Source: Sphyrna mokarran
Lineage: Eukaryota
DNA length: 64,000 nucleotides
Direction of reading: 5' to 3'
Assembly (NCBI GenBank): GCA_024679065.1
Contig: JAGIQG010000040.1
Coordinates: 5,580,001-5,644,000, forward strand
Shown: positions 3,274 through 61,641 of the stretch, one piece after another
Position numbering within the stretch: the first letter of the stretch is position 1
Layout: every line of letters starts with the position of its first letter
The notes under the pieces: model-generated
Seen by the model: only the letters and a program-made list of their open reading frames with translations
Databases searched by the model: none
What the model was told of the DNA's origin: nothing
Translations under genes and position numbers: made by a program

Positions 3274-3445
3274 CAGGGACACCAACAATAGCGAGGATGG
3301 GATAATATCCCTCTTGAATACGTATTAGTACATCGTTAATCTGATAATGCCATGGTGTCTGAACATCAATGGACTCGGTAATGTTCAATTGGAAATCTTC
3401 ATCGAGTGTAAAATTCCAAACTATTGATCCCAGATACTGATCCAT
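3274..3445 (-). CDS. Coding exon 1 of a GPR139-like class A GPCR (N-terminus to start of TM1); exon 2 lies outside the window (<1)
   Basis: MDQYLG...IQEGYYPILAIVGVP ends at a phase-1 donor (CCTG|gtaagt, 3273). It has N-glycosylation sequons NFT and NIT, and an upstream TATA-like TATTAATAA at ~3545. The phase matches the exon-2 type seen at 61641. Confidence 0.75.
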
Positions 3446-3949
3446 TGTTGTAACGTTCCAATCTACTCTCGGATTCTGATCTCTCCTCCCCCCTCACTCA
3501 GGCGGCGAGTGCCACACTTACACTCCCATTGAAAGGAATGCCTTATTAATAGAAGAGGGAAACCCTCTAGTGGCACACTTCGGATCTATGGAGACTGTCA
3601 TTTATTCCATTCACTAAACAAACAAGTGCAATTAACTCTTTCAATCCAAAACATTTTGTATCACAATCAAATCAAACATTTACTTGGTATGGGTTGGATG
3701 TATGAGGTTGACTGAGGACAGGTATGGTGGAAATATTGAATATACTGACCATAATATTTCAATCCTCCTTGGATATGGGAATGGTGCCAGAGCATGGGAG
3801 AGCTATACACGTTCCATGTTTAGAAAAGGAGAAACCACTGAACCAATAAAAAAAAGTTAAGGTGAAATAAACGCGGGAAAGGGGGTTTTCCAGTGTAAAA
3901 TGTTGTTCCTACCGAATGTTGCAGACCGACACATTTTAGATTCCAAGAC

Positions 3950-5430
3950 TCCAACATTTTCATGCACAGGTTCCAAAAAGACTTTCTTACCGCACAGGAC
4001 CTTCAACCGATGCTATACACTAGATACATCGATGACACTTTCTTCTTTTGGACTCATGGCGAACAAACAGTGAAACAACTATATTAACAAGTTCTATCCT
4101 ACCATCAGACTCATCATGGACTCCCGAATCGGTGGCATTCTCGGACACACGCATCTCCATCAAGGACGGTCACCTCAGCACCTCACTGTACCGCAAGCCC
4201 ACAGGCAACCTCACAATGCTCCACTTCTCCAGCTTCCACCCTAAACACGTTAAAGAAGCCATCCCCTACGGACAGGCCTCCGTATACACAGAATTTGCTC
4301 AGATGAGGAGGATCGTGACAAACACCTCCAGACGCTGAAAGATACCCTCGTAAGAACAGGATATGCGCTCGACCCATCGATTAACAGTTCCGAAATGCCA
4401 CAGCGAAAAACCGCACCAACCTCCTCAGAAAACAAACACGGGACACAGTGGACAGAGTACCCTTTGTTGTCCAGTACTTCCCCGGAGTGGAGAAGCTAGG
4501 ACATCTTCTCCGGAGTCTTCAACATATCAGTGATGAAGACGAACATCTCGCTAGGGCCATCCCCCCACCCTCACTTCTTGCCTTTAAACAACCGCACAAT
4601 CTCAAACAGAGCATTGTTCGCAACAAACTACCCAGACTTCAGGAGAACAGTGTCCACAATATCACACAACCCCGCCACAGCAGCCTCTGCAAGACGTGCC
4701 GGATCATCGACATGGATGACATCATCACACATGAGAACACCATTCACCAGGTACACGGTACATACTCTTGCAACTCGGCCAACATTGTCTACCTAATACG
4801 CTGCAGAAAAGGATGTCCCGAAGCATGGTACATTGGGGAGACCATTCAGACGCTACGACAACGGATGAATGAACATCGCTCGACAATCACTAGGCAAAAC
4901 TGTTCCCTTCCTGTTGGCGAACACTTCAGCGGTCACGGGCATTCGGTCTCCGACTTTCGGATAAGCATTCTCCAAGGAGGCCTTCACGACAGCACAGAGC
5001 CGCTGAGCAGAAATAAATTGATAGTTCTTCACACATGAGGACGGTCTCAATTGGGATCTTGGGCTCATGTCACACTAGCTGTAACCCCCTTGACTTACTT
5101 GGATTTGCAAAACCTCACTTACTGTAGTGTCTGGAAACAATACACATCTCTTTGACCTATAGCTAATGTTCCTTCCACTCACATTGTCAGCATCTTTAAG
5201 AATTGAATAGCAGGTCAGTTGTAAAGACTCGCTTTCTAATCAGTAATCTGTCAGCTGTCTGTGCTGTTATATGCTCTGTCTGAGGCCTGAACTCTCCATT
5301 CACCTAACGAAAGGGAAAACCTCGAAAGCTTGTGAGTTTACTATCAAATAAATTGGTTGGATTTAAACCTGGTATTGTCAGACTTCTTACTGTATTTACC
5401 CCAGTCCAATGCCGGCATCTCCACATTACA
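3950..5430 (+). mobile_element. Penelope-like element (RT C-terminus, GIY-YIG endonuclease, pseudo-LTR), degenerate
   Basis: ORF pieces TSLYRKPT...SFHPKHVKEAIPYGQ and NIVYLIRC...WYIGET...LRQRMNEHRS (GIY-YIG). Frameshifted. 3' repeat contains a hammerhead-like remnant at 5301-5334. Confidence 0.9.
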
Positions 5431-6236
5431 ACAGCTGGTTACACACACTGTCAAATCAATATTTTCCTGTGCACACACATCCCAAGATCAATCTGCAGAA
5501 ATCCCACCAGAAACAGTGGGATTTTATATAGTTATATTTACTGCGTGGTTGTAACATTAGCTGCCCACGAGTAACAGCACAAACTTTCCTGAAACTAGCT
5601 CTATCCATGCAATGGAATGTGTTAAAAGGAAAGTGACATTCGGTTTAAAATATCATCCGCATTGGAGACGGTTACGTCAGGTGAAAATGTTGATAATTAA
5701 ATGAAACATGCTAATTGTCCTTCAGTGTGAAATAACATGGGAATATTAACCAAATATTGCGCTGAGATGTCAGCAGATTCTGAGCGTTTGCTGCCACCTT
5801 TTGGGAGAGTTTAGAATTTCTCCCCGTCATGTTCCGTTCAGTTCAGAATATTATTCAGGAATTAGTTTTGCAAAAAATTCGAAAGACTACACCAAAGCTG
5901 TCTTGTCATTAAATATTGCGTTGTTTGGTGTAAGTGCTATACTGAACTTTATCTCTATTTATAATATTTCATGCCTTTTTTGCTATTGTAACACTAAACT
6001 AGTTTCATGTATTATTTTATTAGATAATCTTATTTTGATCACGCAAGGCCATGCCTTGCTAACAACTGTCCAGACTATGCCTCTTCTCACAGGGCACAAG
6101 CCAGTGTCTCAGCTATTATGACACTGAGCCCATATGTCTGTCCTAATTCCACTGGATCGGAGCCTGTTTACATTACAGGAAGGCTGTCTCCTTCCTTCAA
6201 CATTATTTGGCCCCATTGGGTAGTACAAAATCAGCA

Positions 6237-6308
6237 GTTTCTGTGGTGTAGTGGTGATTGTGTTCGCTTCACACACGAAAGAAACCTACTTCAAAGCTAG
6301 GCTAGAGT
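6237..6308 (+). pseudogene. tRNA-Val(CAC)-derived pseudogene
   Basis: GTTTCTGTGGTGTAGTGGTGATTGTGTTCGCTTCACACACGAAAG aligns to vertebrate tRNA-Val; the T-arm/B-box is decayed. Its downstream flank is paralogous to that of the 7333 gene. Confidence 0.7.
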
Positions 6309-7332
6309 GTTATTAGTATTTGTTTACTAAGGGTGAGGAAAGTTTGCATGATTTAAATTTGTTGCTGAACATTGCCCGAAATTCGATATTAAAGCTATAT
6401 TATCTTTGCTGTGACCTCGGCCTCAAAATCTTTCAGCAAAATCTGAAATTTTGTATTTTTATGATGCAACGAGAGGAAATAGATGCCCCTGTTTTAAAAC
6501 TGTGCTCATGACAGCAACTTGTTCAGTCCACAACAGAATTTAATGGCTTTATTAATGCAGACGAACAAAGTTAATCATCATCTGAAACATGTCTAACAGT
6601 ATTGTGTACTCCGAAAGACAGATATGCGAGAAACTGTAACTGAACTAGAGGAAATAGTGCACATTGCACACAACCATCTTTTTAACATCGTTCTTCAGAG
6701 TAAAGAATTCGGAAAAAACCACTCAGACAGATGAGGAAACCGAGAATCAGTGCGGATCTGCTGAACTTCCTACAGATGAATGAGATTTAAGCGCCAGAAT
6801 GTTTCATACTCAGAGTAAAGAGGAATCAAGTATAACTATCAGATCATTTTAAATCTCTTCCCTTTAAAAGTACTTGATTTTGTTTAAAATCTATGGTCAA
6901 TCTCAACTACGCACCATGGGATGTGTATTACCCAGTGATTCGGTTCCTTTTGTTGGTCAGTCATGTTTGCAACTCAGTATTGTATATTTCAGAGATATTT
7001 CATTCAGAATGAGGAGATACGTAATTAATAAAAATACATTATATTATACATTGAGCAGCAAACAAGTACTGGATAGAAGTGGTTGAAATTATCCAAACGA
7101 AGATGAGAATGCTGCATTAATGATTGAGCAGAAATCATTGCTCCTTAAATAATTGCTGGACGACCGCTTTTAAATGCTAAAGTTCACATAAGTTGAGAAA
7201 TAAGGTTGAAAGAAATGTTTTTTTGCCTTGTGTTAAGTGACTGAGGCTCTCAGTGTAACCATTAGGACCTGTAGCAAGATAGTGGAGTTGAACATTGTAG
7301 TTGGGCCATTTGGTGGAACTGTGCTGTCAGTT

Positions 7333-7405
7333 GTTTCTGTAGGGTAGTGGTTCTCACATTCGCCTAACACGCGAAAGGTTCCTGGTTCGAAACCAGGCAG
7401 AAACA
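7333..7405 (+). tRNA. tRNA-Val: tRNA-Val(AAC)
   Basis: 73 nt, GTTTCTG...CAGAAAC acceptor stem, anticodon loop CT-AAC-AC, GGTTCGAAACC B-box. A few D-arm mismatches. Confidence 0.85.
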
Positions 7406-8164
7406 TTAACTTCTTAATTATGAAGGTAGTTTTGCATAGTTTCAGTTTTTGCTGCATATATTCCAGATGTCGATGTTACACCCATATTACCTTTGCTCTG
7501 ACCTCGGACACAAGTGCTCTCAGCTAAATCGGTAATGTTGTATTTTGAAACGCAATCTGGAAATAAATGTGTGTATTGTTCAGTCCACAACAGAACTTAG
7601 TGGATTTATAAATGCAGACTAACATAGTTAATTTCAATGTAAGTATTGAAAAGAACTGCTGAGAAAACTACAAAAAACCATCCAGCATCGAGTCTTTCGG
7701 AAACCTGTGTCTTTGTGCTTGGGATTTTAAACTGCAGAAAGCAGGCTGCAGAAAACAATTTTACAACATCTGTGTCCAAAACAGCAGCCAGAGTCCCAGC
7801 AGAGTAAAACAGGTTTTGAATTGACCAATGATTTTAAAACAAGCTCTCAAACACAACAAACAATTGCATTTAAATTGGAGTGTTGGTGACAGTCTCAAGC
7901 CACTCAAATTGCAGGAATATGCGAGGAAATTCTAGGGATTTAAACCCGGACAGGGGGAAACAATGGGGACAGGGGAAAGGGAGAGAGAGAAAAGAATTTG
8001 GAATTACACAGCACAGAAACAGACCCTTCGGCCCACCAGCTCCATGCTGGCCATCAAATCCCAATCTATACTCCTCCCAATTAAGAGGATAGAAAAGGAA
8101 AGGGACCTGGGAGTGCAGGTGCACAAATCTCTGAAGGTGGCAGAGCAGGTGGAGAAGGTTGTGA

Positions 8165-8620
8165 ACAAAGAACAAAGAACAAAACAACACGGGAAACAGG
8201 CCCTTCGGCCCAACGAGCCCGCGCCGCTACCCCGATATTCCCACCTCTACCCGTGATCTCTGTCAATGTTTATAGATCTATTATAGACAATTTGAGACAA
8301 TTTAGGGAGAATTTGTTTTGCCAATTAGCCTAAGAGCACATCTTTGGGATATGGGAGGAAACCGGAGTACTCGGAGAAAACTTACGAAAGCACGGGAAGA
8401 ATGTGCAAACTCCCACAGACACAGGCCCAAACCCATGTATCTGCACAGCACAGCGATAGTCACTGAGCTGTCGTGTTGCCCATCAAATGGTGCAGGTCAA
8501 GCGTACACTAACGACGTGAAGCACTCGGATACTCTCGAAAAAAATTCAAGAAGCAGCCCTCTCACGACCCATCGCGTGTATGCCCCTCGTTAGACAATAA
8601 GGTGGACCAAAGCACCTGTA
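8165..8620 (-). mobile_element. 3'UTR fragment of a CR1 subfamily with a SINE-like core, flanked by other CR1 scraps (8000-8165)
   Basis: The reverse complement aligns with 53940-54352. TTCTTTG-repeat tail at 8165-8185. Confidence 0.7.
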
Positions 8621-8859
8621 GGGTAAAAACAAGTACATCAATATCATCATCTATTTACACACTTCCCAGGGATCTCCTAAGGCTCATGATCCCTATTTTA
8701 AATCAGTTTTCTATACCCCTCCATTCCCATTCTGTTCATGTGCCCATCTAAGTATTTCTTATTTCTCAAGAAACACTTAAGAATATATTACCAAATTAAT
8801 AAATATATTATTAATAAATATATTCCCAAACTAAAAAAATTGGGGCAACTTAGGGTATG

Positions 8860-9160
8860 AACATTTGACTATTTATAGAGTTTGATGTCCCAAAGTGTTT
8901 CCCGGTCACTGTGGAAAATACAATAGCCAATTTGGATTCACTGTGTCATTTCATTCAGTAATATTGTAGTCTTCTGTCTGTTTCAGTAAGTGTGATCGGT
9001 GAACAGACATCAAACAGGACATTTCCCTGTCCTTCTTGGAAACAGTGACCATGTGATATGTCATCTCTAGCTGAGAGGGAAGATGGTGTCCTCGATTTAA
9101 TAATTCACCGAGATGCTGGCAGCTCTGACGGCGCAGCATTTACTGAGCACTGCACTGTCT
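8860..9160 (-). repeat. Ancient SINE fragment (DeuSINE/SacSINE-like core)
   Basis: gctctgacggcgcagcatttactgagcactgcactg resembles the reverse complement of the Deu core domain. Recalled from memory, not searched. Confidence 0.4.
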
Positions 9161-9614
9161 CCTCGGGAAGTTCTCGGATTCTTATTCCTGCCAGACTGCC
9201 TGTGTCCTTTGGCACGGAAAGAATTTCTGAATCGACTGGAGACAAAATCCGGGAAATCCGAGGCGGTGGTGGCCCCTCCTTAACCCAACCTGGGAAAGAA
9301 ACGGATTAAAACCAAAAGTAAATTAAAAATAAACATTTCTGGCCCATGGAAACATGAGCCAATTAATTTAATCTCCAGAAAGAAATTGCAGTCGATAAAA
9401 GAAAGAAAGATTTTTATATCCCTTTACAGACTTCAGCGCTTTCTAACCCAAGGAAACTCATTTCCACTGTCGCCACTGTGGCGATGTTAGAAACTTTATT
9501 AACACAGAAATCAGTGGGAATGTTTAATTCTCTGTCAGACAGGGTTGCCACACTGATCCAGGAATAAAGAGATTGCGGACCCCAGGTATGTGAATGTTAC
9601 TTTGAACTCTCTGT

Positions 9615-9626
9615 CACACACACAAG

Positions 9627-9669
<43 letters not shown>

Positions 9670-9692
9670 TGTCTCTCCCTCTGTCTCTCTCT
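9615..9692. repeat. (CA)n followed by (CT)n microsatellite
   Basis: Directly visible. Confidence 0.9.
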
Positions 9693-10847
9693 TTACGATT
9701 CATTGAAGAACCGCATTGATTAGAAACATTCTGCTCAACGTCGTATTCAGATTACTCAGTGACATTAAAACGCAATTATTTCTACCTCGCTAAGTTTCCT
9801 GTGTCTCCCTCCTCATTGTCCCAGGGCACATCTTGAGATACCTCTGGTTGACCAAACTTAAAAATAGATTGGTGCATGATTACGCCAGACAAAGTCCTGC
9901 AGTGGACTTTCCACTAACTCGTGCAATATCGGTGACCGTTGAACTCACCAGGTCTTACCACCTGCCATTAGGCATATTGGAAAAAATGCAAGCTATAATC
10001 CACTTGTGTTACTGGAGCGGAATCCTGTCTCTATAGTCATACAATATCGAAGTGTTTCTATTCCGGAAATCCTGAAATTCTCATATAGACCCTTCCACGA
10101 AACACAATGTGGTTTGTGGTGTGAAGACTCACAGATATTTCCTATAACCCCAGCTGTCACCTGTGACAAATTGAACTCATGGTTCTGCAAGTTTTAGCAA
10201 AAGATGAGGTCTTGGAGCGTCACCTGTCAAACTGCGATTCTCAATGTTGTTAACGTTGTTGCATGATATTGCAGAATTTTTGTGTAGCCGTTTTATTGCA
10301 TGTTTTATTACTTTGATGAAACTACTACTACTACATCTGATGTCTTTGTCATCGTTTTGACATTGTTACATTTGATATTTAGATTTGGTTTCAGAGCATT
10401 TGTCCCGTTTCCGGTCGAGTCTGCGCCATGAGCACAGTACCTGCTCTGTTGATTAGATGGATGAATTTCGCTTTAATAAACTCAAAAATCCAGAACTGAT
10501 AAGTCTGGATTGATCATTTCGAAAGAACGGACGACTTGGACGCTCGCTAATATTCAAATACGTATGACAATAACATTTTTAAAAAGCCAATGTATCAAGC
10601 CAATATGTTTTTAATGTTTCTACTGAGGGTTAATCTGCAAGTTTTATTGTGATAGACAATAAAACAAGTTTAATGTTAACATTTAATTTAATATTAACAT
10701 AATTAACATTATGTTAATCACAAGCAGAAAGTTTTGTATCGGGATTGCTTGAATCATGCTCACATCTGAGGCATTTTGGTGTTGTGTCTACAGTCCCCCT
10801 GTCGAGAGAGTTATTGTACAAGCTCCTGATCTCTCTGTTTCACTGTG

Positions 10848-11128
10848 TCTCACTGCACTGTAATACACCGCAGAGTCTGGCAGCTCAACCGTGTGAACAG
10901 TGAGAGTAGTGGAGCCTTTCTCACGGTCCGCAGATACCTTAAACCTTCCCCCAGCTCTTTCATCTCTGAATGTGGAAACGAGATACTCTGGAGCTTGATC
11001 GGTCAATTGTCGGTACCAGAATACAAAGTCACTTGCAGTGACAGCGACATTGTGATGAAGAGAGGTAGTCTGTCCTTGCGTTGCCAAATACGTTGAGATC
11101 TGAGATGTCTTCGACTGACAAGGAATAG
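10848..11128 (-). pseudogene. TCR alpha/delta-type V pseudogene (open frame, both canonical Cys lost)
   Basis: QGQTTSLHHNV...FVFWYRQ...DSAVYYSAVR. Followed by a 23-RSS: CACAGTG (10847-10841), 23 nt, ACAATAACT (10817-10809). Confidence 0.85.
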
Positions 11129-11615: not shown

Positions 11616-12072
11616 TCAACTTCACAGAGCTATACATTCTGGAGTCCTGGACCGCAGTGTCATCGAAAGAGATGGTGTTGGAATTTCTTTACAGTGTCAG
11701 TTGGAAACACTGTGCAATGTCCTTTGGTCACATTTCTATCGTAAATGGAGGTGACAAATATCGGAGCCCTGTCAGTGTTTGTCTGTACCATGCTACAGAG
11801 TCGTCTGTAGAAATGGAGAGTCAACAGTTATGTTCAACCTGCTCCCCTTCCCGAGAAACAGCCTACTCATGTTGACAGCTCTGACCCTGACCCTGACCGG
11901 CTATGGACAAAAAAAATCACTCACAAACTAGATGGTATGAAGAGATTGTTAAGAACAACACATCTGATGAGAAAAATAACAACTCACACAATAGCAGCAA
12001 GGTCACAGCTTGAACAGGAAACAAGTACTTGCAGGGATTTCGCTTCATGGTGATGAAGATGCACAAGAGCAT
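11616..12072 (-). pseudogene. TCR V pseudogene with leader remnant and 4 in-frame stops
   Basis: Exon from acceptor at 11900 translates REGEQVEHNC*...DSVAWYRQ...VQDSRMYSSV. Heptamer CACAGTG at 11615-11609 with a degenerate nonamer. Leader-like MLLCIFITM at 12072 and TGACGT promoter motif at ~12218. Confidence 0.7.
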
Positions 12073-13245: not shown

Positions 13246-13284
13246 GGTTTTTGTATGGGACCCCGCTGTGTTTGTTACACTGTG
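13246..13284 (-). other. 23-bp spacer recombination signal sequence
   Basis: CACAGTG, 23 nt, ACAAAAACC (consensus heptamer and nonamer). Confidence 0.95.
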
Positions 13285-13617
13285 GCTCACGGCACAGAGA
13301 TAGGTGGCAGTGTCTGTAACTCCGGCGTCTCTCACAGTCAGGGTGCTGAATTTGTAGCCTTCCCCGATTGAGGCAGTGATCCTCTCGCTTTGATCGGTTT
13401 CCCTTCTGGCCATCACCAGATGTTGGGGTGGCTGATTCGGGGACTGTCTGTACCAAGACAAGCTGTTAAACGCAGTGGTTATAGTGCAGTTGATGGATAT
13501 GGTTTCCCCTTCGCTGACAACCTTCCACAGAGGAAGCTGCACCACCTCATCTGCTCCAGTCACTCCCGTGAAGATCAGAGTGAAAAGCAGCAAAGAGAAT
13601 CTGTAAATTCGGAACAT
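13285..13617 (-). CDS. TRAV: TCR alpha/delta V segment, apparently functional; leader and V in one exon
   Basis: MFRIYRFSLLLFTLIFTGVTG|ADEVVQ...INC...WYRQ...DTATYLCAVS, with a perfect 23-RSS. Confidence 0.9.
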
Positions 13618-26240: not shown

Positions 26241-26255
26241 TCTCGCTCATGTTCT

Positions 26256-26432
26256 ATCACTTTGGGAGGATAACAAACTTTAAGCCCAAATTTTGAGATC
26301 GAACTTTAGTATAACTACTAAGATCACTAACGTAATGATTAACCAAGTCTTCATCTCCGACACTGCTGTGTATTTCAATGTCATGAGTCCCGACACAGCT
26401 GCAGAGATGTAACGGGTCCCAGTCAAAATTCC
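26256..26432 (+). pseudogene. 3' relic of a V segment with degenerate RSS
   Basis: Translates ...VMINQVFISDTAVYFNVMSP, then CACAGCT (26394), ~22-23 nt, (T)CAAAATTCC. The 5' part is replaced by CR1. Confidence 0.55.
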
Positions 26433-28399: not shown

Positions 28400-28865
28400 A
28401 TGCGGCTGCTCAGCATCTGGGTTGTGTGGGCAATATTTCTGACAGGTAAATGTGGACCAAACACATTTCAACTTGGATTTTTTACATTTTTCAAATATGG
28501 TGTAAAACAAAATTTTCTACAGTCGCCCGATCAGATTTTTTTAATATTTGTTTCTCAGATGTGATTCATGGAGATTGTGTCACTCAGTCACTTTCCACAG
28601 ATGTTGGGATAGAAGGAGAAGAGGTGACTTTAAATTGTAAATATGATACTGAACAGAGCTCATACTATCTATACTGGTACCGGCAGCACCCAGACTCACA
28701 GCCTGAGTTTATATTGAGGAAATATTCGGGAGGCGGTGAAGATAAAGCCGATTTTGCCAAAAGCAGTTTCGATTTTGAGCTCCAGACAGAGAATAAATTC
28801 ACCAGTTTAACTGTCCGGGGTGTGAAGTTGGCTGACGCCGCCGTGTATTACTGCGCTTTCAGTCT
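28400..28865 (+). CDS. TRAV: TCR alpha/delta V segment, apparently functional (leader 28400-28445, V exon 28559-28865)
   Basis: Leader MRLLSIWVVWAIFLT, phase-1 intron, DVIHG|DCVTQ...LNCKY...WYRQHPDSQPEFIL...DAAVYYCAFS. Confidence 0.92.
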
Positions 28866-28904
28866 CACAGTGACAGAAAACAAGCTCAGCCCCGTACAAA
28901 AACT
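28866..28904 (+). other. 23-RSS
   Basis: CACAGTG, 23 nt, ACAAAAACT. Confidence 0.95.
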
Positions 28905-30604: not shown

Positions 30605-31840
30605 ATGCGGCGCTCGGTCCTCACTGTGATCTGGGTGACATTCATTGTCGGTAAGTTTAACTCTTTAAAGAGGAGTGTAACTTCTATAGGAATGCATTTG
30701 AAAAGCAGAGCGCTCCACTTAATCAGACATTGACCATAGAGCACTTGAGTCTTTGCTCTTGGCTTTTCCTTACAAGAATATCAGTTGGCAAAACTCACAG
30801 CAAACCTGATACCAGAATTAGGAGATGGTAGCTATCACAATTCAATCTAAATATTATGGTTAATTTATCTTCTGGCAGAAGATTAAAGAGTAACCTGATT
30901 GATGTATTTCTAATGATGAAGAGGTTCAGTACTGTGGACGGCGAAAGGATGATTCCACTCGGGGAGGATTCCGAATCCATTTCCCAAAAATCTGAGTGAA
31001 ACCAAAAGATCAACTAAAGATTACAACGAATCTCCTTTCGAGGGGGTTCTGTAGAAAGTGACCCACATTAACACAATGAACACTTGAAGAGAGGAATAAA
31101 GACACAGTTGGGATGGGGAAAGATTAGCCGCTGAGGGGGAAAGGGACAGAGGCATTGAGATGGCGGATTCTTCTGGGGATTCTGAACGGTAGATCAGTTG
31201 GGGCGAATTTGTTATTATTTGGTGTCTATTTTTATGTTACATCGTCTGCGAATTTTCACCCTCAGTTCATAGAACATAGAACATTACAGCACAGAACAGG
31301 CCCTTCGGCCTTCGATGTTGCGCCGACCAATATAAAAAGCAATGCCCCTCCAAACTAAACATTTCCCTTCTCTTCCATATACTTATCAACTAACCTCTTA
31401 AACGCCACCAAACTTGGCGCATCTACAACTGCTGCAGGCAGGGCATTCCACTCCCGAACCACCCTTTGGGTAAAGAACCTGCTACCTTTGGGTAAAGTTC
31501 AGCTGAATGTTTTTTATTTCTTTTACCCTGTGTTCCAGATCTGAGCAATGGAGATTCTGTTACTCAGCAGGAATCCTCACTCACACGGACAGAGGGAGAA
31601 AATGTCACTTTAAGCTGCACCTATACCGACGATGCAAATTATTTATTCTGGTACCGTCAATACCCGGACAGACAGCCCGAGTTTGAGGTCCGGAGACATT
31701 CGGGCGGCCGTTCTGAACTGAAAGCGGATTTCGCTCAGATCCGGTTTTCTGATACAATCGAGAATTCAGAAAAGTTGTACCGATTGGCCATCTCGAAGCT
31801 GCTGCTGTCTGACACCGCGGTCTATTACTGTGCAGAGTCT
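30605..31840 (+). CDS. TRAV: TCR alpha/delta V segment, apparently functional (leader 30605-30650, V exon 31539-31840); missed by the ORF track
   Basis: Leader MRRSVLTVIWVTFIV|gtaagt. Exon DLSNG|DSVTQQESSLTRTEGENVTLSCTYTDDANYLFWYRQYPDRQPEFEVRRHSGGRSELKADFAQIRFSDTIENSEKLYRLAISKLLLSDTAVYYCAES has no stops. Confidence 0.92.
31270..31495 (-). mobile_element. Short young CR1 3' end inserted in the V intron
   Basis: Near-identical to 41101-41310, with a putative AGTTCA TSD. Confidence 0.85.
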
Positions 31841-31879
31841 CACAGTGATGAAAAGGAGTGAAATCCTCGTACAAAAACT
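31841..31879 (+). other. 23-RSS
   Basis: CACAGTG, 23 nt, ACAAAAACT. Confidence 0.95.
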
Positions 31880-33777
31880 GCCGCAGGTTTCTGGGTAACA
31901 GCTGCTGTCTGCTGGGTGCCGTTTATAACAGCGGCTCTGAAATTGGCGCGTCAATGTATTCCCGTGAACACAAACCCCGAGAACCATCCACACAAACACC
32001 TTTCAAAACCGTTCACATGGAAGGAAGATTCCTGCTGATTCTCAGATTCGCTGTACGGGGGAAGAATTGGCTGCTCTTTATTTGGGGGTCACTCGGCACT
32101 AACATTGAAAATACAAGTGAAGTTTCATTCAATAGTGTAAACTGAAACCTGCCAGCTGGGGCAAATCCCAATAACTAACCGCAACTAAACACCTGTCATT
32201 TAAATTCACTTACAGACTGTGAATTATTAACATGAGGAATACAAAAGGATTGTTCCAGTCATGATTAGGAGCTGATAAACAATGATTAATAGAGTAAATG
32301 ATTTAAAACGGAAGAATTGGGATGGCCTCAGCACTGGAACAGATGATATGAAAACGGGCTAAATACAGAAGCCGGATTGAAAAGAGCTTCAGAAAGTTTG
32401 CTAAAATCTCCAGAAGCGCTCTGGGAAATCGAAACACACCAGAGAAGTCATTATGCCCATAAAAGTATGTTCCTTTTCCTGCAGTTCCTTCTGTGTTATT
32501 TACTGTTTAATTCAATTAAAATGTTTCTTGTCATTGAGCTCAAGATTTGGACACAGATCTGCGAAATATTTATCTCAATAGAAACAATAAAATTTACTCA
32601 ATTAAAAAACCATCTCCGAACCCGCATCACTATTTCTATTGTCAGTGCTTTGGAGCCTCTTCTCTTCTGTTCTTTACATGTGATATTTCCAATTCAGACG
32701 CAGAAGAGGAAATCTCTCTGATACTGATTCGGAGAAGACCTGTGGTGACCAGGAAGTCACGCAGTATCGTTACACAGCAATAAGTCGAAATTCCCTGACC
32801 AGGGTCACGGCAATCATGTTAGCGTTTTTAATCAGTGATTCATTTGGTCATTTTTCAAACCGTTTCTGTCAAACCGTTCAGTGTGATTGGATTGAATCAT
32901 CTCACCTTCACCAGAGTAACTGCGGTGCTGTCGAAAATGCTCCAGAAGAACAGGACGATGAACGTGGAAGCAGTTGCCCAGATACCGCTGTTATCATCTT
33001 CATTGTCTTCAATCCAGATACAGTCGGTGGTGACTAGGGAATGTAGACAAGAAAACAGAATTACATGGTTTTATTTTCCAAGAATTCTTTTTTTTTAGTT
33101 CTCAGTTTGTATGTGTGCATCCTTCAGTTTCATTAAGATTTAGTCTTCCATTCTGTGTATCCGTGTAAATTTCTGGCATTCAGGCTTTGTTTTTAAAGCC
33201 GGATTATTTCATGAGGAAAGGTTGGAGAGACAAGGTTTATATCCACTGGAATTCAGAATAAGAGTAAGTTACTTGATTGATACGTATAAAATATAAAGGT
33301 AGATGTGAAGAGCTTAGTTTCTCTTCTAGATGAATCTATAATTAGATATCACTGTTTCAAAATAGGGATTCATGCAATTAAAATAACACTATACCTCAAC
33401 CTCCTCTAATGTGTGTCTGTATTTATAAATACTCATCTGTAGAATGTCAAATGGTCAAATAACAATAGAAAATGAAACATAAACTCTTTAACTGGTAGCT
33501 GCTCTCTCTCTCTGTCTCTCTTTCGCTGATCAACCTTTCAGTCTGATGGGATTCTGCTGTGTTTTGGCTCAGCCGATCCTGGATTGAACTGGGTGACAGT
33601 TTGATCCGGGGTTAATGTGGTTTCCTCTGGGTGTGTGTCTGAGCGGCTGACAGCGCCGCTGCTCAATCTGGCTGTTACTTTCTGTGGTTCTCTACACAAA
33701 CCTCAACAGACTGGAGCACCCAATGATAGCTGCAAAGCAGTTTTTGTACCGGAGTGAGACTGCTTTCTATCACTGTG

Positions 33778-34349
33778 AGTCTGAAAGCGCAGTAATAGCG
33801 GCCAGAGTCAGTCAGCTGGAGGCTCGAGATGGTTAAAATAGTTAATTTAGCCGCGGTCTGGAGATCAGCAGAGAAACGAGATCCAAAACCATCTCCTCTG
33901 ACTTCTTCCTCTGTATTCCAGGACGTTTTCCGTGTAATGAACTGTAAATCCTTCTGTGGCTGCTGTCTGCACCAATATAAGACATAGCCACTTGCTGTAG
34001 TGCTGTAGGTACATCGAATAGTCACCGTTTCACCTTCTCTCCTCTCTAAAAACTGCGGCTGAGAAACAGAATCTCCATCACTCGGATCTGTAACGTGTTC
34101 AAGAAGGAAAAGAAAGAATGATGTGTTGGATGTGCTGTTGAAATGATTTTAACACTTTACAATCCAAGTGACATAACCGGAGTTACAAAATTAAAACAAA
34201 TAAAGGCGGAATTATTCAGCATCGACAGGAAACATCACTGGAGAGAAGCAGAGTTAATGTTTCATATTAAGGTAACATTTAACCATATTGGAGTCCTGCT
34301 TACCGATAAGAAACAGCCCGAACACAATGCAGACGGTGAGGAACTCCAT
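33778..34349 (-). CDS. TRAV: TCR alpha/delta V segment, family A copy 1 (leader 34349-34304, V exon 34087-33778)
   Basis: gccgccATGG Kozak, leader MEFLTVCIVFGLFLI, DSVSQPQ...IRCTY...WCRQ...DSGRYYCAFR. 23-RSS at 33777-33739. Confidence 0.9.
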
Positions 34350-36682: not shown

Positions 36683-36766
36683 TGGTAGAGCGTGGGATTT
36701 GAATCCACGCCTCTACGAAGACTGAGGGCCTTAATTCAACGCCGTAGACCGCTCGGCCGCCATAGC
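36683..36766 (-). pseudogene. tRNA-Leu(AAG) pseudogene
   Basis: Reverse complement ...GGCCGAGCGGTCTACGGCGTTGAATTAAGGC...GAGGCGTGGATTCAAATCCCAC, with a long variable arm and several mismatches. Confidence 0.75.
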
Positions 36767-51136: not shown

Positions 51137-51702
51137 AGACTGAAAGCGCAGTAATAGCGGCCAGAGTCAGTCAGCCGGAGGCTCGAGATGGTTAAAGTAG
51201 TTAATTTATCCGAGGTCTGGAGTTCAGCAGAGAAACGGGATCCAAAACCTTCCCCTCTGTCTTGTGCACCTCCAGATCTTTTCCATATAATAAACTGGAA
51301 ATCGTTCTGTGACTGCTGTCTGTACCAATACAAGAAATAGCCACTTGCTGTCGTGTTGTAGGTACATCGAATAGTCACCGTTTCATCTTCTCTCCTCTGT
51401 AAAGACTGCGGCTGAGAAACAGAATCTCCATCACTCGGATCTGTAACGTGTTCAAGAAAAAGAAAAACATCTCAGTGTTAGATGTGCTGCTGAAATAATA
51501 TTAACATTTTATATTCACCTCGGCATAAACTGGAGTTACGAAATAAAAGCAAATGATGGTAGAAATACACAGCAGGGTCAAGAACCACCACTGGAGAGAA
51601 GCAGAGCTAAAGGTTCAGATCGCGATAAAATTTAGCCGGGTTGGAGAAATTCTTACTGATAAGAAACAGCCCGAACACAATGCAGACGGTGAGGAACTCC
51701 AT
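51137..51702 (-). CDS. TRAV: TCR alpha/delta V segment, family A copy 4 (leader 51702-51657, V exon 51440-51137)
   Basis: IRCTY...WYRQ...DSGRYYCAFS. 23-RSS at 51136-51098. Confidence 0.92.
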
Positions 51703-53480: not shown

Positions 53481-54352
53481 ACAATAATCTGGTCGCCGTA
53501 CTACCGGAAGGATGTGGAGTCCCTGGAGAGAGTGCAGAGGAGATTTCCCAGGATGCTGCCTGGTATGGAAGGGCTGTCTTACGAGGAAAGGTTGAACGCA
53601 CTAGGGTTGTTTTCCCTTGAAAGACGTCGGCTGAGAGGGGATCTATTAGAGGTATATAAGATTATGAGGGCTATAGATAGAGTAAATGGTGGTAAGCTTT
53701 TTCCACCATTAGATTCGGATAGAATGAGGGGTCATGGCCTTAGGGTGAGGGGGGCTATGTATAAGACTAATATTAGAGGGCATTTTTTCACACAAAGGGT
53801 AGGGGGGGTGTGGAATGCACTACCGAGTAATGTGGTAGGAGCAGGCACGCTAGGGTTGTTTAAGGGTCTCTTGGACAGCCACATGAGCGGTCTGCAGATA
53901 GAGGGATATAGGAGGACTGTTTAAATACTTTAATTCTTTCCACAGACTGTTCGGTCCACCTTGTTGACCAACAAGGTGCATGCATTCGGCAGGCCGTGCG
54001 AGGGCTGCTCCTGGATGTTACTTTAGGAGTGGCCTAGTGCTTCATGTCGTTAGTGTATGCTTAAACTGGACCATCAGATGGGCAACATGACAGCTCAGAG
54101 ACTATCGCTGTTGCTGTGCAGACACATGGATTTGGGCCTGTGTCTGCGGGAGTTTGCGCGTTCTCCCTGTGGTTGCATGGGTTTTCTCCGGGTGCTCCGG
54201 TTTCCTCCCACATCCCAAAAATGTGCTCTTAGGCTGATCGGGTAACAAATTGTCCCGATATTGGTCTCTATATGTCATTAAGACGGTAGGATGGCGGCGC
54301 GGGCTCGTTGGGCCGAAGGGCCTGTTTCCCGTGCTGTGTTGTTCTTTGTTCT
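53481..54352 (+). mobile_element. CR1 insertion with long 3'UTR carrying a SINE-like core
   Basis: WSPYYRKDVESLERVQRRF...WNALP runs to the stop at 53924, followed by ~430 nt of UTR ending in TTCTTTG repeats. It interrupts taaataaa|cggattg of the sister units. Confidence 0.88.
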
Positions 54353-56509
54353 TAATAAATGGATTGTACATCAGCGGATTTAGGTGCAGATCCCCTCAGA
54401 GAAACAAATGCAGCAACCCGAAATATACAAGTTAAGAAATGAAGATAAACGAATAGAAAGGCAGTGAATGTATCAAGTGCCGATACCATGATCGAAGGAG
54501 AGAGATAAGTAGAGAGGAACAGATGGAGAGGCAGAGAGATAAGCAAAAGAAAAGGGAATGTCAGGGAGATAAATAGCGGGGCAGACATTGAGATAAGTGA
54601 GGGAGAGGCGGAAGCTGCAAGGGAAATGGATGATGATACGCTGAAGGGAGCAGATGCAGAAATGTAGAGATAATACAAGGAGATACAAAGAGAGACAAAC
54701 GAACGGATGACAAGAGAAACAGAGATAGACAGTGACAGAAACAAATATGTCCAACTTAAAAATCAATGGCCTAAATCCAATCAGAATTCCAGAAAGGGAA
54801 AGAAAATAACTTAATTTAGAACGTGATACCATCAGGGAGATTTCCGAGAGCCCCCTATACCCCTCAGAATGAAACCAGTATCACTATTACATTGTGACCC
54901 TTCCCGTGTCCCTGCGGTAAACACGCATGTGCGGTGAGGCACCTCCATCTGGCGGCGATCCAAGGTAATTTATTATTTTCTGGAAAACCACCCAATTCTC
55001 AGAATACAGAAGGACATCACTGCATTAGTTTTAAGCCTATGTTCATTTATTAGTGTCACAAGTCTGAACTAATGAATTCTGATTTTTGCTTTCTCTCTGT
55101 ACTTCTCTGGTTCTCCAGCTCTCTCTTCTTATGGGACCTAAGTACCTTGCTCTGTCATTCCGCCTCGGTTTCTCTATATCCCTTTGCTCTGCTTCTGATC
55201 GTCTCTGTCTTCACACATGCTCTACGTTCTTCTTTTTCTATCTTTTTCCCTAAAGTTTAGGGTTTTGACAATCCAATTTCTCCCACTGTCCCATTTCAAA
55301 GAATCCACAAATTACTCATTAGATTGGAGCAGCAATAATTGATAAAGTTAACAACAGGATTTGAGGGATAACAGTATGATGGAAAGATTTAAATGCAAAT
55401 AACCAAGGAATATAGGTAATGAATAAGAATCCAGGAACATGTTTCCTTTTTGTGTTGTTATTTTAGAGCAGGCATCTTATCTGAATCTTGATGGCTTCTT
55501 ATTGTTTAAAATGGGCTTTTATAACCATTGTTAATTGAATATAGCGAATCACCAGCAACTAAAATAACCTTGGGATTATCCCTCATGCATACGTTCAACT
55601 GGATTAAATTACAGTGTAATAATAAAAGTAATGGAAAAATAATCTGTCATAGTGGCAGATTGGTTAGCTCTGCTGCCTCACAGCGCTGGGGATCCGGGCT
55701 CAGTCACTGTCTGTGTGGAGTCTGCAGGTTCTCCCGTGTCTGCGTGGGTTTCCTCCGGGTGCTCAGGTTTCCTCCCGTAGTCCAAAAATGTGCAGGTTAG
55801 ATACATTAGTCATGCTACATTTTCGTTAAATGTACCCGAACAGGCGGCGGCGCGAGGCAACTGAGGGATCGCATGTTGCAGACTGACACATTCCAGAAGC
55901 CAAGATTACTTGTGAGGGATGCAGTAAAGCAAGGGGCAATCATCACATATGCACAAAATGGGAAGGTTGCTGTGGAAGACCTTTCAGCCACTGTGAATAG
56001 AAGGATAAGGGATGTTATAGATCAACTCGGACATTATGATCCACAGCGAATGCACACGGTTCATATTACATGTATCACATTTGGATTGAAGCATCTCAGA
56101 ATGCAACTCGGTCTGTGCAGACCACTTGAATATTTGTGTACTTTGTGTGATAGCCATTTTGTTCAGCACGTTTTTCAATGTATTTTACGAATGAAGGAAT
56201 CTCGGCACGAGAAACACCTAAAAATAGAAGAGGCAGAAACAGCCACCTTGCGGAAGGGGTGAAAAGTGGACTCAGAGGCCGTCACCATCATCTAGAGCCG
56301 AATGTAAAGAACAGAAGGATGTTTTACCACTGATAACGACTATTTTGCAATGTCTGCGATGTTTTTTTTTGACTGTATTGAATCACCATAGAATGCAACA
56401 CGATGTATGTAGAGAAACTGTACATACCTGTACTTTGTGGCCACTTCGAGATGCTTGTAATGCTCGACCAGGTATTTGACAAATAAAGTTTTTTTTGCAA
56501 AAAGCAAAC

Positions 56510-56790
56510 GCAATTTTGGATCTGGAATGTCAGAGCCTTCGTGGAGAACGTCAACAGGGGCAGACTCTAATGGTGTAATGCTATCAGTGGCTGAGAGCTC
56601 AGGCATTTCAATATTGACGTCAGTGCCCTAAGTGAGGCCCGGTGGGCAGGGCCAACTTCAGGAAAAAAGCTGACGGTTACACTTTCCCCTGGAAAGATAA
56701 ACGAGATGGAGATCGCTGACTCTATAGGGTTGGCTTTGGCATAAAATAAAACAAAGAAGCCTGCCACCTGAGAAACTCCCTTTGCTGGCT
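56510..56790 (+). mobile_element. RTE-type LINE endonuclease fragment
   Basis: Broken frame WNVRA...ELRHFNIDVSALSEARWAG resembles the RTE APE N-terminus. RT-like scrap AFLNPTNSFDTFNRQGL at 57680. Confidence 0.55.
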
Positions 56791-56869
56791 AAATTAATCC
56801 CTCATGAACATTTGGGTAAACGTAGCCCACAAGTAGTGCCGTGCTTCCAATGTTAAAGCAGTGCCTTTT

Positions 56870-57480
56870 GTGCTATACAGTCAAACATACCGTTTGTGAT
56901 GAAAGAGAAGGAAATGAAAAGGAGAGAGCGCAGAATATACTGTCACAGTCATAGCTTGGTGAAAAGTTTAATATGAGATAGGGCCATTCAAAAGTCTGAT
57001 GCAAACAGGGAAGAAGCTGCTCTTGATTCTTTTGGTACGTGTTTTCAGACTTTTGCATTTTTTCCCCAGATGGAAGAATGTGGAACAGGGGATGTCTGGG
57101 ATACATGGGGAACTTGATTATGCTGGGTGCTTTTCTGAGGCAGTGGGAAGTGTAGACGGAACCAATGTATGAGAGGCTGGTTTGTGTAATGGACTCGGTT
57201 ACGTTCACAACCTCGTCCAATCGTGGTCAGAGCAGGAGATAGACCAAGCTGAGATAAATTCAATAAGATTGGTTTCTATGGCGCATGCAAAAAAAACTGG
57301 TGAGGGTTGCAGTGGACAACTTGAATTTTTCAGCTCCCCGAGAAAGTGGAGACACTGGTGAGCTTTCCAAACTATTGTGCCAGCATGGAGGAACCAGGAC
57401 TCATTGTTGCTGATCAGAATATATGGAAAATTGAAGCCCTCGACAATCTCCACTTCGTTATCATTGATGTCGCCAGGGAA
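56870..57480 (-). mobile_element. Rex1/Babar-type LINE fragment
   Basis: CAIETNLIEFISAW and SIIKFPMYPRHPLFHILPSG; homologous to 15290-15960. Confidence 0.7.
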
Positions 57481-57836
57481 CAACGCCGCATAGGAAACAG
57501 GCTCTTCAGCCCAACAAGCCTGCACCACCCATTTTATCATTGTGAGTGCCCTCTTCTACCTATGACCTTTGTCTACGCTCATTGGACTCCACAATAAAGG
57601 AACCATAACCAGATTGAGGAACGACTAATTTAGGGACAATTTGTTAACACCAGTTAAATGCAGGTGATGGCAGCAAACTTTGTATATGGCCTTCCTTAAC
57701 CCCACAAATTCCTTTGACACTTTTAACCGCCAGGGACTATGCAGAATTCTCCTCCATTTTGACTCTTTCAAAGATTTTACCCCCACCTGCACCTGCTCCA
57801 CGATAACATGGAAAGTGTGGTCAATTATTTTTTCAG

Positions 57837-58634
57837 TGTTGCCTCCCGCACTGGGTGTTTTAACCCTTATACGGTGGGCAAATAACTATGAGTAGACATT
57901 TTGTTAGTGCGACCAATTTTTATTTAAACCCACAAAATCAATAATCACCCACCCGACCAACAATAAGTTACCTTACAGAAAATACTAGAATTCAAGTCCA
58001 ATACAAAGACCTTGACTTAACTTTGTGTGACTGGCAAGTACTCAAGCAGATATTGGCCATTATCTGTGCGCTGGTCTTTGGTAGTCATCTGCGTAGTCTG
58101 GTCCTTTGGTCTATTCTGGCTCTGGTCTTCTTCCTTCTTTGTCGGGTATGGAGGCTCTCCTCTTGCTGGCTTTGTTCATCATTATTGTAGGTCATTCGTG
58201 GGGTCAGACAGAGAGAGAGAGATTCCTGGTTGTGCAGTACCCTTTATACCCCATTTGCTTTCAGGCACTTTTTTAGGCATTGCCAATCAATTGATCAGGA
58301 TTTGATCTCCCTGATGGATAAGACTCCAATCAGCTACTAACACACCGATCTCTGTGTGTGTCCCTAACGGCCATGCGTTTAGGCGCTGGAGGCACATAGG
58401 AGACATACCTCTCTCCTAAATAAGGAATCACGGTGTCCTTATGTCTGGTACACAACTCAGTGTGACCAGAAAGTCTCTTTCATCCTGGAGATGACCCATA
58501 TCCTGTTTACTCACTCGTCAGGGTTGCAGTCTGTTTGTCTCTGTCTTTAAACTGCAATCTGTCAGTTTGGTTTCTTGTCCAATTGTCCCAGAGTGCTTTA
58601 CAAAACGCCATTTCAGATGGGCTGTTTGGCTACA
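57837..58634 (-). mobile_element. Solo LTR (798 bp) with 4-bp TSD TCAG
   Basis: TG...CA termini, TCAG at 57833-57836 and 58635-58638. On the - strand, TATAAA at ~58245 and AATAAA at ~57920. Confidence 0.75.
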
Positions 58635-58819
58635 TCAGTAAGCACAGGGAGGTGTTTGATGTTCAGAGGGGCACCCTGAAGCCATTCCTGGGAGTATTTG
58701 ACTCTGTATTCTCAGCTATTGTTGTCTCCTTCCATTTTTAAAATAGTGAACGTATTTTATTTGTAAAGTTGAAATATTATTGCATATAACTCTAGCATTA
58801 TTCTTTATTATCGTGGCCT

Positions 58820-59140
58820 TCTCTCCATCTCTCTCTCTCACTAACGTTCCCCGCTCCTCCTCCCCCACCTCTCTGTCTCTCTCTTCCCTGTGTCTACTTT
58901 CCACACTATCGTTTCTGCTTCTCCCTTTATGCTCCTGTTCTCTCTGCCCCCTTTTTCTTTATGCCTCTGCCCTCTTTCTGCCCTCTGCAGCTTTCCCTGT
59001 CCTCTCTCCCCCCTTTCTCGTTCTGTTCCTCTCGCTCTACCTCACTCTCTCCCCTTATTTCTCTTTCTCTCTCTCTCTCTCGCGGGTGTCTGATCTTATT
59101 TTTTTTTTGCGAGATATCTCGCCCTCCCTCTCTCCCGCTG
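58820..59140. repeat. CT-rich low-complexity tract
   Basis: Directly visible polypyrimidine and (CT)n stretch. Confidence 0.8.
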
Positions 59141-59479
59141 CGATTGATTCTGGAGCCTAATGATTTTCCTGTTTCCCCTTCGATCTCCGGTCCCATTTGA
59201 CTTCAAATTGACAATGCAACACTTAACTGTTGACCCAGTTAATTATGTAGGTGCGGTTTGTGATCTCACCTCCCTTCGGTTATCTCATGTCGTCTCTAGA
59301 AACTCAATTCTTCAGGCCACCCCCAGCAGTGTACTGTGGGAATGTAGAACCACTTACCAAGAGGATGATGTTTGGATGATTGCTGTCCAATCAGAGTGAA
59401 GTAGCGGGATAATGGGCAGCTGGAACGGTGAATCGGAGAGGAAATTATCTCATTGTCATTGTATTCAAGTCAGAACAAG

Positions 59480-60670
59480 GTAATTGGATCTTGGATAGTT
59501 GATCTAGCCAATAGAGGGTCCAATTGATGTAGTTCATATGGATTTTAGCAAAACTTCTGATGAGGGCCTACATGGGAGAACTGATTGACAAAAATGAAAC
59601 ACATAGAATTCGGGAGAACTTTGCAATGCAGATCCAAAACTGGCTTCGTAATTGTAAACAAAGTATCATCATAGAAGGCTGTTTGAGTGGCTGGAAGCCA
59701 GTGTCTAGTGGCATATCACAAAGATCAGTGTAGGGGCACTTCTTGTTTATTATCTACACAAATTATAAGATGAAATGTAGGGAAATGCTAAACAAGGTTG
59801 GTAGGGTGGTTAAGGGTAAAGAAAAAGGGTGTAGTTGTCAGGAAGATAGAGACGAATTGGTCAGATGACAAAGCAGTGCCAGGCGGTATTTAATCCTACT
59901 AAGTGCGACTTGATGCACTTTGGGAGAAATAACAAGACAAGGGAGTATTTAATGCATGCAGGACACGAGGAGGCTCAGGATAACAGATGGTTCTTGGGGT
60001 AAATACTCATAAATCCTTGAAGGCAGCAGAGCAGTTGAATATCATATTTAGGAATGCATACAGACGCTTGTTTTTGACAGTTGTGGCATAGAGTAGAAGT
60101 ACAAGGATAATGTTGGAGCTGTACAGAACACTGGTTAAGCCACAGCAGGTGCACTGCGTATGGATCAGATCATCTCACAGAAGGAAGGATGTGATTCCAC
60201 TGATACAGTGGATATTCACCACACTTCTGCCTAGAATAGAACATTTGAGCAATAAAGGAGACTGGAGAGGCTTAGATAGGCACAGAAGTGGCTGAGGAGA
60301 CATGTCTGAGGTGTATAAGATTATGAGGGGTATGGACAGGCTGAATGGAAATCAGATATTCCTTTTGGTCAAGGATCAATCACAAGGAGGTGTAGCATTT
60401 GAGGTAGCGGCAGGACATTCAGAGAGGATTTGAAAAAAGTCTCAGCAAATACTGAGAATCTGGAATGCACTGCCTGCAAAAGTAATGGAGGCGGAAACCT
60501 TATAAATTTTAACAAGTATGTGGATGAGAATTTGAAATATCATAACATTCAAGGATGTGGGACATTTGCAAGAGCATGCAAGCAAAGCGATTTGAGTGAT
60601 AGTTATTCTGGGTGCAAATTTGATGGACTGAAGAACCTTTTCTGCACTAGACAACTTCATGAATCTATGG
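59480..60670 (+). mobile_element. Old degenerate CR1 ORF2 3' half
   Basis: MDFSKT..., LELYRTLVKPQ..., and a CR1-like 3'UTR. Many stops. Confidence 0.8.
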
Positions 60671-60754
60671 AGATCCTGTCGTGTTTGTACCTCCCTTTTC
60701 AGGAAATGTAAACAAAAGAGAAATCTGGAAACTCTGAATGATTCTGTGTTTCTC

Positions 60755-61641
60755 TTAATGACTCTGAGTAAATGGATATTTCATCACATTCTTCAGCTGC
60801 TCCCTGAACTTAGTCTGGGTGACCGCATAAATAAAAGTGTTTGTGCTGCAGCTCAGGAGCTGCAACATGAATCCCAACGCTTCAACAAAAACCGCACTGT
60901 ATACATATGGATACCCTAACCAGAATATCTGGAAAGATAAAGTATCGATCATTATCGTTGACCATAACAGGATGAAATTGGCTGAAATAACAAACAGTAA
61001 AATGATGGAATTCCTTCGACTTTCCATTTCTGGGTCTCTGACACTCTCACCATTGCAGTGAGCCCGGAGCCTTCTGCGGGCTCTGCTCGTCACTAAAATG
61101 TATTTGACAGTGAGAAAATTGAGAAGAAGAATCAGAACAAATGGAATACATGGTGTTAGAATGTAATGGAAGAGCACAATTGCTCCCCAGACTGGAGAAA
61201 GCAGGACATCAAATGAATAATTACAAAACCAAGGGTCGTTCATCAATGCATACTTACGTGTTACCATAAAATACCAGAAAATATTCTTTAAACAGCTTAG
61301 TGCAGTCACTGTTCCCAGAACCACAGATGCCACTTTTTCACTGCAACATTTATTTTTCAGCTTCTGGCAACAAATGGCCACAAATCGATCAAAGGTGAAA
61401 GTGACGGTGAACCAGACAGAACAGTCAGTGGCTGCATAAAGCAGGACAGCGTGGATATTACACACGGGGATCAATTTCAGGAAATGAAACAATTCATCAA
61501 AAACAATCGGAATGTGTCTCAATATCAGGTCAAGGATAATAACCAGCAGATCCGACAATGACATGGCCACCAGGTAACGAGTGACACATCTGGAGAGACC
61601 ACAGTTTTTGCGAATGAGGATCACAATAGTGACTAAGTTCA
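60755..61641 (-). CDS. Coding exon 2 of a GPR139-like class A GPCR (TM1 end to C-terminus); exon 1 lies outside the window (>64000)
   Basis: Acceptor tttccctttctcacag|TG AAC TTA (phase 1). VNLVTIVIL...YLVAMSLSDLLV...CNIH...FTFDRFVAIC...TNTFIYAVTQTKFREQL. Open frame with 7TM hydrophobic pattern. Confidence 0.9.

Follow-up and report, generated by a model that had tools for sequence, protein, structure and literature searches.

The trypsinogen genes of the mammalian T-cell receptor (TCR) beta locus, TRB, are non-TCR genes that were co-duplicated inside a TCR locus. In the mammalian TCR alpha/delta locus, the olfactory receptor genes OR10G2 and OR4E2 (human) and three Olfr genes (mouse, Olfr1507-1509) lie among the first variable (V) segments of the alpha chain, the TRAV genes (excerpts of PMC4574546). 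In elasmobranchs, TCR alpha/delta, IgM, IgW, IgNAR and PSMB5 make up an antigen receptor complex (AgRC; excerpts of PMC12227049), and shark TCR loci have been described as translocons (excerpts of PMC6795676 and PMC12227049). Here we analyse a 64,000-nucleotide stretch of the Sphyrna mokarran genome (hereafter the window; positions 5,580,001-5,644,000 of contig JAGIQG010000040.1, called C994, which measures 12.33 Mb or 0.44% of the genome), in which V segments lie between two G-protein-coupled receptor (GPCR) genes. The window is part of a large shark TCR alpha/delta V region, and we consider it probable that the GPCR genes of this region are passengers copied with the V segments rather than their working partners.

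C994 resembles the AgRC in carrying PSMB5, IgH-type V segments, NAR-TCR-type units, Cdelta and Calpha on one small chromosome-scale contig, with TCR V segments in both orientations over megabases. It differs in its GPCRs, none of which is listed in the available portions of the AgRC paper and its table S1 (PMC12227049; no matches for GPR, GPCR or G protein), and in its 10 Cdelta-like exons, where the stingray sheet of that source shows a single TCR delta constant gene. Like the mammalian locus, it has genes of a large class A GPCR family interspersed among TCR alpha V segments. However, the mammalian genes are olfactory, and two or three of them sit at the 5' edge, whereas the shark genes belong to another family, have two exons, lie mid-array and have multiplied with V segments in recent duplications. 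The trypsinogens of TRB offer a parallel, being likewise a multigene family that was amplified as a passenger in or next to a V array, although the locus and the passenger family differ.

Results

Searching C994 with a whale shark constant region located constant (C) and transmembrane exons, and placed the window in cis with two sets of joining (J) and C elements. The nearer set, on the minus strand at 5.359-5.381 Mb, comprises a diversity (D) segment at 5,381,018, five J segments, Cdelta at 5,363,163 and a transmembrane exon; it lies 199-217 kb from the window, and no N gap falls between 5.34 and 5.732 Mb. Its assignment to delta is made from the D-J-C layout; the D segment bears 12/23 recombination signal sequences (RSS). 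The farther set, also entirely on the minus strand, has 99 J segments with 12-bp RSS at 4.384-4.455 Mb, a different C exon at 4.3794-4.3797 Mb and a transmembrane exon at 4.3785 Mb, a layout that we read as Jalpha-Calpha, 1.1-1.2 Mb from the window and downstream of Cdelta in cis. Thus, the TCR alpha/delta identity suggested in a preliminary description of the window is upheld, and the check proposed there, to locate J and C, finds both on the same contig (Jalpha-Calpha at 4.379-4.455 Mb, Cdelta at 5.363 Mb). V matches extend over 2.5-6.28 Mb of C994 and IgH-type V segments over 0.59-10.35 Mb; the genome-wide V searches used single V proteins and their best 150, 131 and 150 matches, and are lower bounds. 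A PSMB5 exon at 0.67 Mb, with 85-89% identity to shark PSMB5, and the IgH-type V segments share the contig with the window, a linkage that matches the AgRC.

The V segments of the window carry intact signals. RSS with 23-bp spacers matched nine times, against a mean of 0.01 in shuffled sequence (none of 100 shuffles reached nine), and a joint scan for RSS and open frames put all nine directly after an open V frame, six on the minus and three on the plus strand. All seven V frames submitted matched the Pfam V-set family, and relatives at 61% identity occur in V-J-C chains from other sources (P0003, P0004). The motif and RSS scan of the 64-kb window detected no J motif and no J- or D-type 12-RSS, in agreement with the earlier statement that no D, J or C was seen there.

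Alternation of V segments and GPCR genes continues well beyond the window, as had been anticipated. Across 834 kb of C994 (5.340-6.174 Mb) we found 121 V-like matches, 87 of them open with an RSS, and 13 copies of GPCR exon 2, arranged as seven V blocks alternating with six GPCR blocks. Since V segments outnumber GPCR genes by about nine to one, the GPCR blocks are the islands, and the initial picture of a V island in a GPCR array has to be turned around. In nine of the 13 GPCR copies, exon 2 and the upstream exon 1 are both open; of the others, two have frameshifts in exon 2, one beside an N gap has no detected exon 1, and one (gene B, below) has a frameshifted exon 1. Other GPCR subfamilies adjoin V blocks at 3.62-3.82 and 6.31-6.33 Mb.

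Self-comparison of the region gave 141 alignments of at least 3 kb, mostly at 90-98% identity and in both orientations, several of which hold V segments and GPCR genes together. Examples are the inverted duplicate C994:5,550,552-5,580,110 versus 5,686,626-5,657,672 (97-98%) and the pair 5,767,381-5,792,357 versus 5,922,960-5,898,671 (95%). In most blocks the ends of the GPCR pair are flanked by the same V families, and GPCR blocks form the centres of two inverted repeats, one at 5.80 and the other at 5.99 Mb. A quick maximum-likelihood tree, built from 37 of our copies and 41 of the 120 listed relatives, joined the 13 copies at 5.56-6.00 Mb and three from 10.0-12.1 Mb in one clade (SH-aLRT 96) and placed copies at 3.6-3.8 and 10.4-12.3 Mb in another. 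These patterns indicate that the six GPCR blocks are not independent meetings of GPCR and V but one clade spread by segmental duplication.

The borders between the two kinds of DNA are sharp. On the left of the window, GPCR 5' flank meets V-spacer DNA at 6,211-6,212, where about 2.9 kb holding one V segment is missing relative to paralogous blocks. On the right, V-block spacer meets GPCR 3' flank at 55,867-55,869 with a 3-base microhomology; this junction is unique to the window copy among the 1.66 Mb compared, and the DNA to its right is non-repeat (eight matches in 1.66 Mb). Both edges of the window are thus secondary. To the right of the window, contigs from four DNA runs, some of them from other organisms, covered all 30 bins of a V-to-GPCR stretch, and none of these short contigs spanned it, the junction there lying on a high-copy repeat.

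Because some inverted arms meet at N gaps and a 20.5-kb block of the window (20,551-41,100) recurs at 99.84% identity at C994:5,700,499-5,721,047, as a recent or a false duplication, copy numbers may be inflated by haplotype duplication. Separately, the arms of a 28-kb inverted repeat (98.8%) at C994:6,096,336-6,158,184 meet at an N gap, and V segments with the same identity scores occur at 5.20-5.30 and 6.18-6.28 Mb, where false duplication is possible.

The two GPCR genes bordering the V array are distinct. Coding exon 1 of gene A (3,274-3,445, minus strand, open), encoding the N-terminus and the start of the first transmembrane helix (TM1), ends in a GT donor, and its exon 2 by position lies 8-9 kb left of the window at C994:5,571,026-5,571,937; both exon frames are open. 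Coding exon 2 of gene B (60,755-61,641, minus strand), which runs from the rest of TM1 to the C-terminus, is open, preceded by an AG acceptor and matches Pfam 7tm_1; its exon 1 lies 2 kb right of the window (C994:5,645,954-5,646,141). The location of both partner exons substantiates the proposal that the V array sits between exon 1 of one gene and exon 2 of another, and, together with the exon order, rules out a single split gene spanning the window. The earlier account of two flanking paralogous genes missed, however, a frameshift in exon 1 of gene B, which makes gene B likely to be a pseudogene.

These genes belong to a very large family. The exon-2 protein of gene B has 2,303 relatives; among the best 120, all 117 named ones are shark models annotated as 'probable' or 'putative G-protein coupled receptor 139', and identity to many shark models from several orders is 66-77%. 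The hammerhead genes share with the NCBI 'probable G-protein coupled receptor 139' models this identity, the 7tm_1 match and two coding exons, but that name is automatic, and similarity to human GPR139, the only relative found in the PDB, is weak (25 bits, E 8.8e-5). The top atlas clusters are likewise named after GPR139. With so low a score and at least 188 copies by one motif, we reject orthology with GPR139, and the shark genes are likely to be GPR139-related paralogues. We also reject an olfactory receptor identity, as Pfam at E<=0.001 returned 7tm_1 and no olfactory family profile. Thus, with 13 copies among the V blocks, the claim that a lineage-expanded, non-olfactory GPCR family co-occupies the TCR alpha/delta V region holds.

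Most of the family seems to lie away from V segments. In a genome search, the 130 scored of 2,444 first-look candidates fell (by eye) into 46 on C994, 44 on contig C960 and 40 elsewhere, and C960 had no match among the best 150, 131 and 150 of the three V searches. A motif built from C994 copies had 188 exact matches genome-wide (control 0), and the first 100 of those listed fall on 19 contigs other than C994. The second subfamily, found just past the last V match (6.31-6.33 Mb), branches off, at 85-87%, from a tandem array on contig C1548, which holds 113 of its 133 matches and is a pure GPCR array. Taken together, these counts suggest a huge family that is mostly V-free outside C994. The C1548 array itself (103.6-105.05 Mb), one of several large ones, has about 112 tandem GPR139-like genes, nearly all on one strand, within 1.45 Mb. 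On contig C949, a GPR139-like motif match lies at a distance of 36 kb from the last V match of another V array (12.61-12.85 Mb), which may be a further TCR locus.

Among 12 exon-2 copies (one frameshifted copy being excluded), pooled pN/pS was 0.34 over 66 non-independent pairs, and pairwise dN/dS ranged from 0.14 to 1.01, values indicative of purifying selection on exon 2. In the literature searched, to which the word 'undescribed' is limited, we found no account of a GPR139-like expansion in sharks or of GPCRs in a shark TCR locus; the family is undescribed in the available portions of PMC8455134, PMC6504862, PMC12208981, PMC5931798, PMC6795676 and bioRxiv 10.1101/2022.10.17.512540.

The window has 12 firm V segments, nine with an RSS and three relics with stops found with a hidden Markov model (HMM) built from 86 local V segments. 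The preliminary description counted at least 13; the additional candidate, a possible V 3' fragment at 26,302-26,385 (plus strand), scores 2.1 bits, is absent from the HMM results and is doubtful. Among the nine, six have clear spliced leaders, one a leader-like in-frame stretch and one no leader within 600 bases. On the minus strand, a complete leader, V and 23-RSS occur at 33,739-34,349, the first of four tandem family members, and again at 39,811-40,414, 46,185-46,793 and 51,098-51,702. The plus strand carries a leader exon, V and perfect 23-RSS at 20,891-21,366, a leader exon, V and 23-RSS at 28,400-28,904 (61% identity to the V of a whale shark V-J-C model), and the V with 23-RSS that has no leader within 600 bases, at 31,544-31,879. 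The relics lie at 11,632-11,883 (minus, 17.8 bits), 45,297-45,584 (plus, RSS absent) and 49,852-50,127 (plus, RSS not usable).

Two further minus-strand segments are unusual. The V at 13,246-13,617, with a perfect 23-RSS, belongs to a family in which leader-like sequence and V exon share one open frame, as if intronless. The V at 10,809-11,120 has a 23-RSS and a doubtful leader and lacks both canonical cysteines; with five paralogues at C994 5.550, 5.687, 5.771, 5.824 and 5.919 Mb it forms a cysteine-replaced family, three of whose six copies are open with an RSS, and which is either a pseudogene family or a disulfide-free V. The window also contains long reverse-transcriptase open frames of LINE elements (196-1,668 and 41,490-42,893, both minus, plus fragments elsewhere), presumably of CR1/L2 type, and near 4,036-5,035 a GIY-YIG-like fragment that we take to be of Penelope type.

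Other receptor units occur on C994. An IgH-type V-D-D-JH minicluster lies inside the TCR V array at 5,478,784-5,480,273 (L010-L011), about 100 kb from Cdelta. A second D-5J-Cdelta locus with a transmembrane exon occupies 3,851,812-3,872,597 on the plus strand (L065-L067), with IgH-like V segments and at least six GPCRs in the block directly upstream. The constant-region search found Cdelta-like exons not only on C994 but also on small contigs, which hold three. Stand-alone NAR-TCR-like units lie at 10,432,825-10,455,224, 10,511,278-10,533,183, 10,973,068-10,983,838 and 12,209,682-12,229,280 (L072-L079, L140, L145, L151, L152, L156), each with a NAR-type V, a supporting Vdelta, a Jdelta, its own Cdelta and a transmembrane exon, and each between GPR139-like genes; some may be haplotype duplicates. 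Three of the distal units were examined, and in each a copy of the Ddelta 3' RSS terminates the supporting Vdelta (L072:4590-4680; L077:5303-5393; L140:1710-1800), an arrangement that reads as a germline V-D join. Such joins recall germline-joined shark immunoglobulin genes and the TCR mu clusters of marsupials.

Discussion

We observed directly the cis linkage, the intact RSS, the alternation, the shared clade, the co-duplicated V and GPCR blocks, the sharp junctions and the purifying selection on the GPCRs, and on this basis we propose the following history. One tandem GPCR pair would have come to lie between two V segments, probably once, and the pair and its V neighbours would then have been copied by direct and inverted segmental duplications and rearranged. 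By standard V(D)J rules, the window V segments should be used by RAG in the ordinary way, those on the minus strand by deletion and those on the plus strand by inversion, so that T cells rearranging these V segments would excise or invert any GPCR gene located between V and D/J. This prediction fits a GPCR role outside T cells. With exon 2 under purifying selection, the GPCRs are not dead cargo but are kept by selection of their own, likely for such a role; from the family size and related invertebrate expansions, our guess is a chemosensory or peptide-receptor function. That the GPCRs are probably passengers is further supported by the four of 13 copies that are broken or have no detected exon 1, and by a family that is not V-specific, as the pure C1548 array, C960 and the motif matches off C994 attest.

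Several observations weigh against this account. C994 holds 46 of the 130 best matches on 0.44% of the genome, a share biased by the origin of the query on C994 itself. GPCRs alternate with IgH and NAR-TCR units along the distal arm of the contig, and the pooled pN/pS of 0.34 shows that the copies are not dead cargo. Additionally, the sister of the window's GPCR clade is catshark P0007 (support 99), which belongs to a cluster of seven sequences on a 133,841,611-base record. Catshark PSMB5 is on a record of that same length, with an accession number 15-29 higher, and catshark PSMB5, IgW, IgM and TCR V lie at 132.0-133.5 Mb of chromosome 17 (PMC12227049, from part of table S1). We infer from accession order that the catshark GPCRs lie near PSMB5 and TCR V. 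Record length and accession closeness give indirect support for a shared chromosome, that is, for residence at the level of the chromosome and not for placement between V segments. Residence of this clade on the antigen-receptor chromosome thus looks old and may date back to the elasmobranch level. In the cloudy catshark, too, a GPCR from a different branch is on one record with PSMB5, but this one measures 331 Mb.

The best surviving alternative is that selection maintains the GPCR clade as a permanent part of the antigen receptor complex, either co-regulated with TCR chromatin in lymphoid cells or serving as the repeated core for duplications of V blocks and of entire NAR-TCR units. The catshark sister clade on the PSMB5 chromosome speaks for it, as do the alternation of GPCRs with V blocks in this region and with NAR-TCR units farther along (10.4-12.3 Mb), the two inverted repeats that have GPCR blocks at their centres (5.80 and 5.99 Mb), and the pN/pS value. 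However, several unrelated GPCR subfamilies adjoin V blocks, large GPCR arrays have no V matches, an N gap lies at the centre of one palindrome, and the two junctions examined show a deletion and a microhomology of 3 bases rather than recombination between GPCR copies. V-J joining would, moreover, delete GPCR genes in alpha/beta T cells. We therefore judge such a role unlikely. Its fullest form deserves about the same limited credence: a GPR139-related clade inside the complex at least since the catshark split, a fixed part of duplication units that multiply both V blocks and NAR-TCR miniclusters with their own Cdelta and germline V-D join, would be a putative lymphoid-expressed family tied to an immunoglobulin-like, cluster-form TCR delta.

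We hold it distinctly improbable that assembly error, as a chimeric join or two haplotypes placed in tandem, created or inflated the alternation. Near-identical DNA gives grounds for concern: a 99.84% identical copy of the 20.5-kb block lies 100 kb off, N gaps at 5.804 and 6.125 Mb mark the points where inverted arms meet, and GPCR exons at 10.496 and 12.158 Mb are identical. But the window has no N, three GPCR blocks fall within one gap-free stretch, gap-free inverted copies are as alike (97-98%) as those flanking gaps, and the 3-base microhomology join at 55,867 is clean, with non-repeat DNA to the right of it. Error could inflate the counts without removing the pattern.

The preliminary description also offered convergence or an ancient V-GPCR association. 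Apart from the position of the human and mouse olfactory receptor genes among the first TRAV genes (excerpts of PMC4574546), little recommends an association shared with mammals: the window GPCR matches 7tm_1 only and has GPR139 as its only PDB relative, and the mammalian genes occupy the distal 5' edge whereas the shark genes are mid-array in recent duplicates. We give shared ancestry very little credence; as the shark family is not olfactory, the parallel is convergence at most. The other suggestion, an orphon cluster of V segments remote from J and C, draws on the absence of J, D and C within 64 kb but is refuted by D-J-Cdelta 199-217 kb away on a gap-free stretch and Jalpha-Calpha 1.1-1.2 Mb away in cis, and we set it aside as scarcely credible.

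The V/GPCR arrangement is thus most likely ordinary in mechanism, and its interest is that of a modest addition: it gives a second example of receptor genes lodged in a TCR alpha/delta V array, this time from an unrelated GPCR family, together with a map of the inverted segmental duplications that build the shark V repertoire. That a shark genome holds hundreds to thousands of copies of one GPCR family is at odds with a published remark, in the portion of PMC8455134 available, that cartilaginous fish have few GPCRs. The multiple NAR-TCR-like units with their own Cdelta are more novel than the arrangement itself, and multiple Cdelta units bear on the relation between cluster and translocon organization of antigen receptor genes. 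If the GPCR clade proved to be lymphoid, or needed for the duplications, an orphan receptor expansion would be linked to adaptive immunity.

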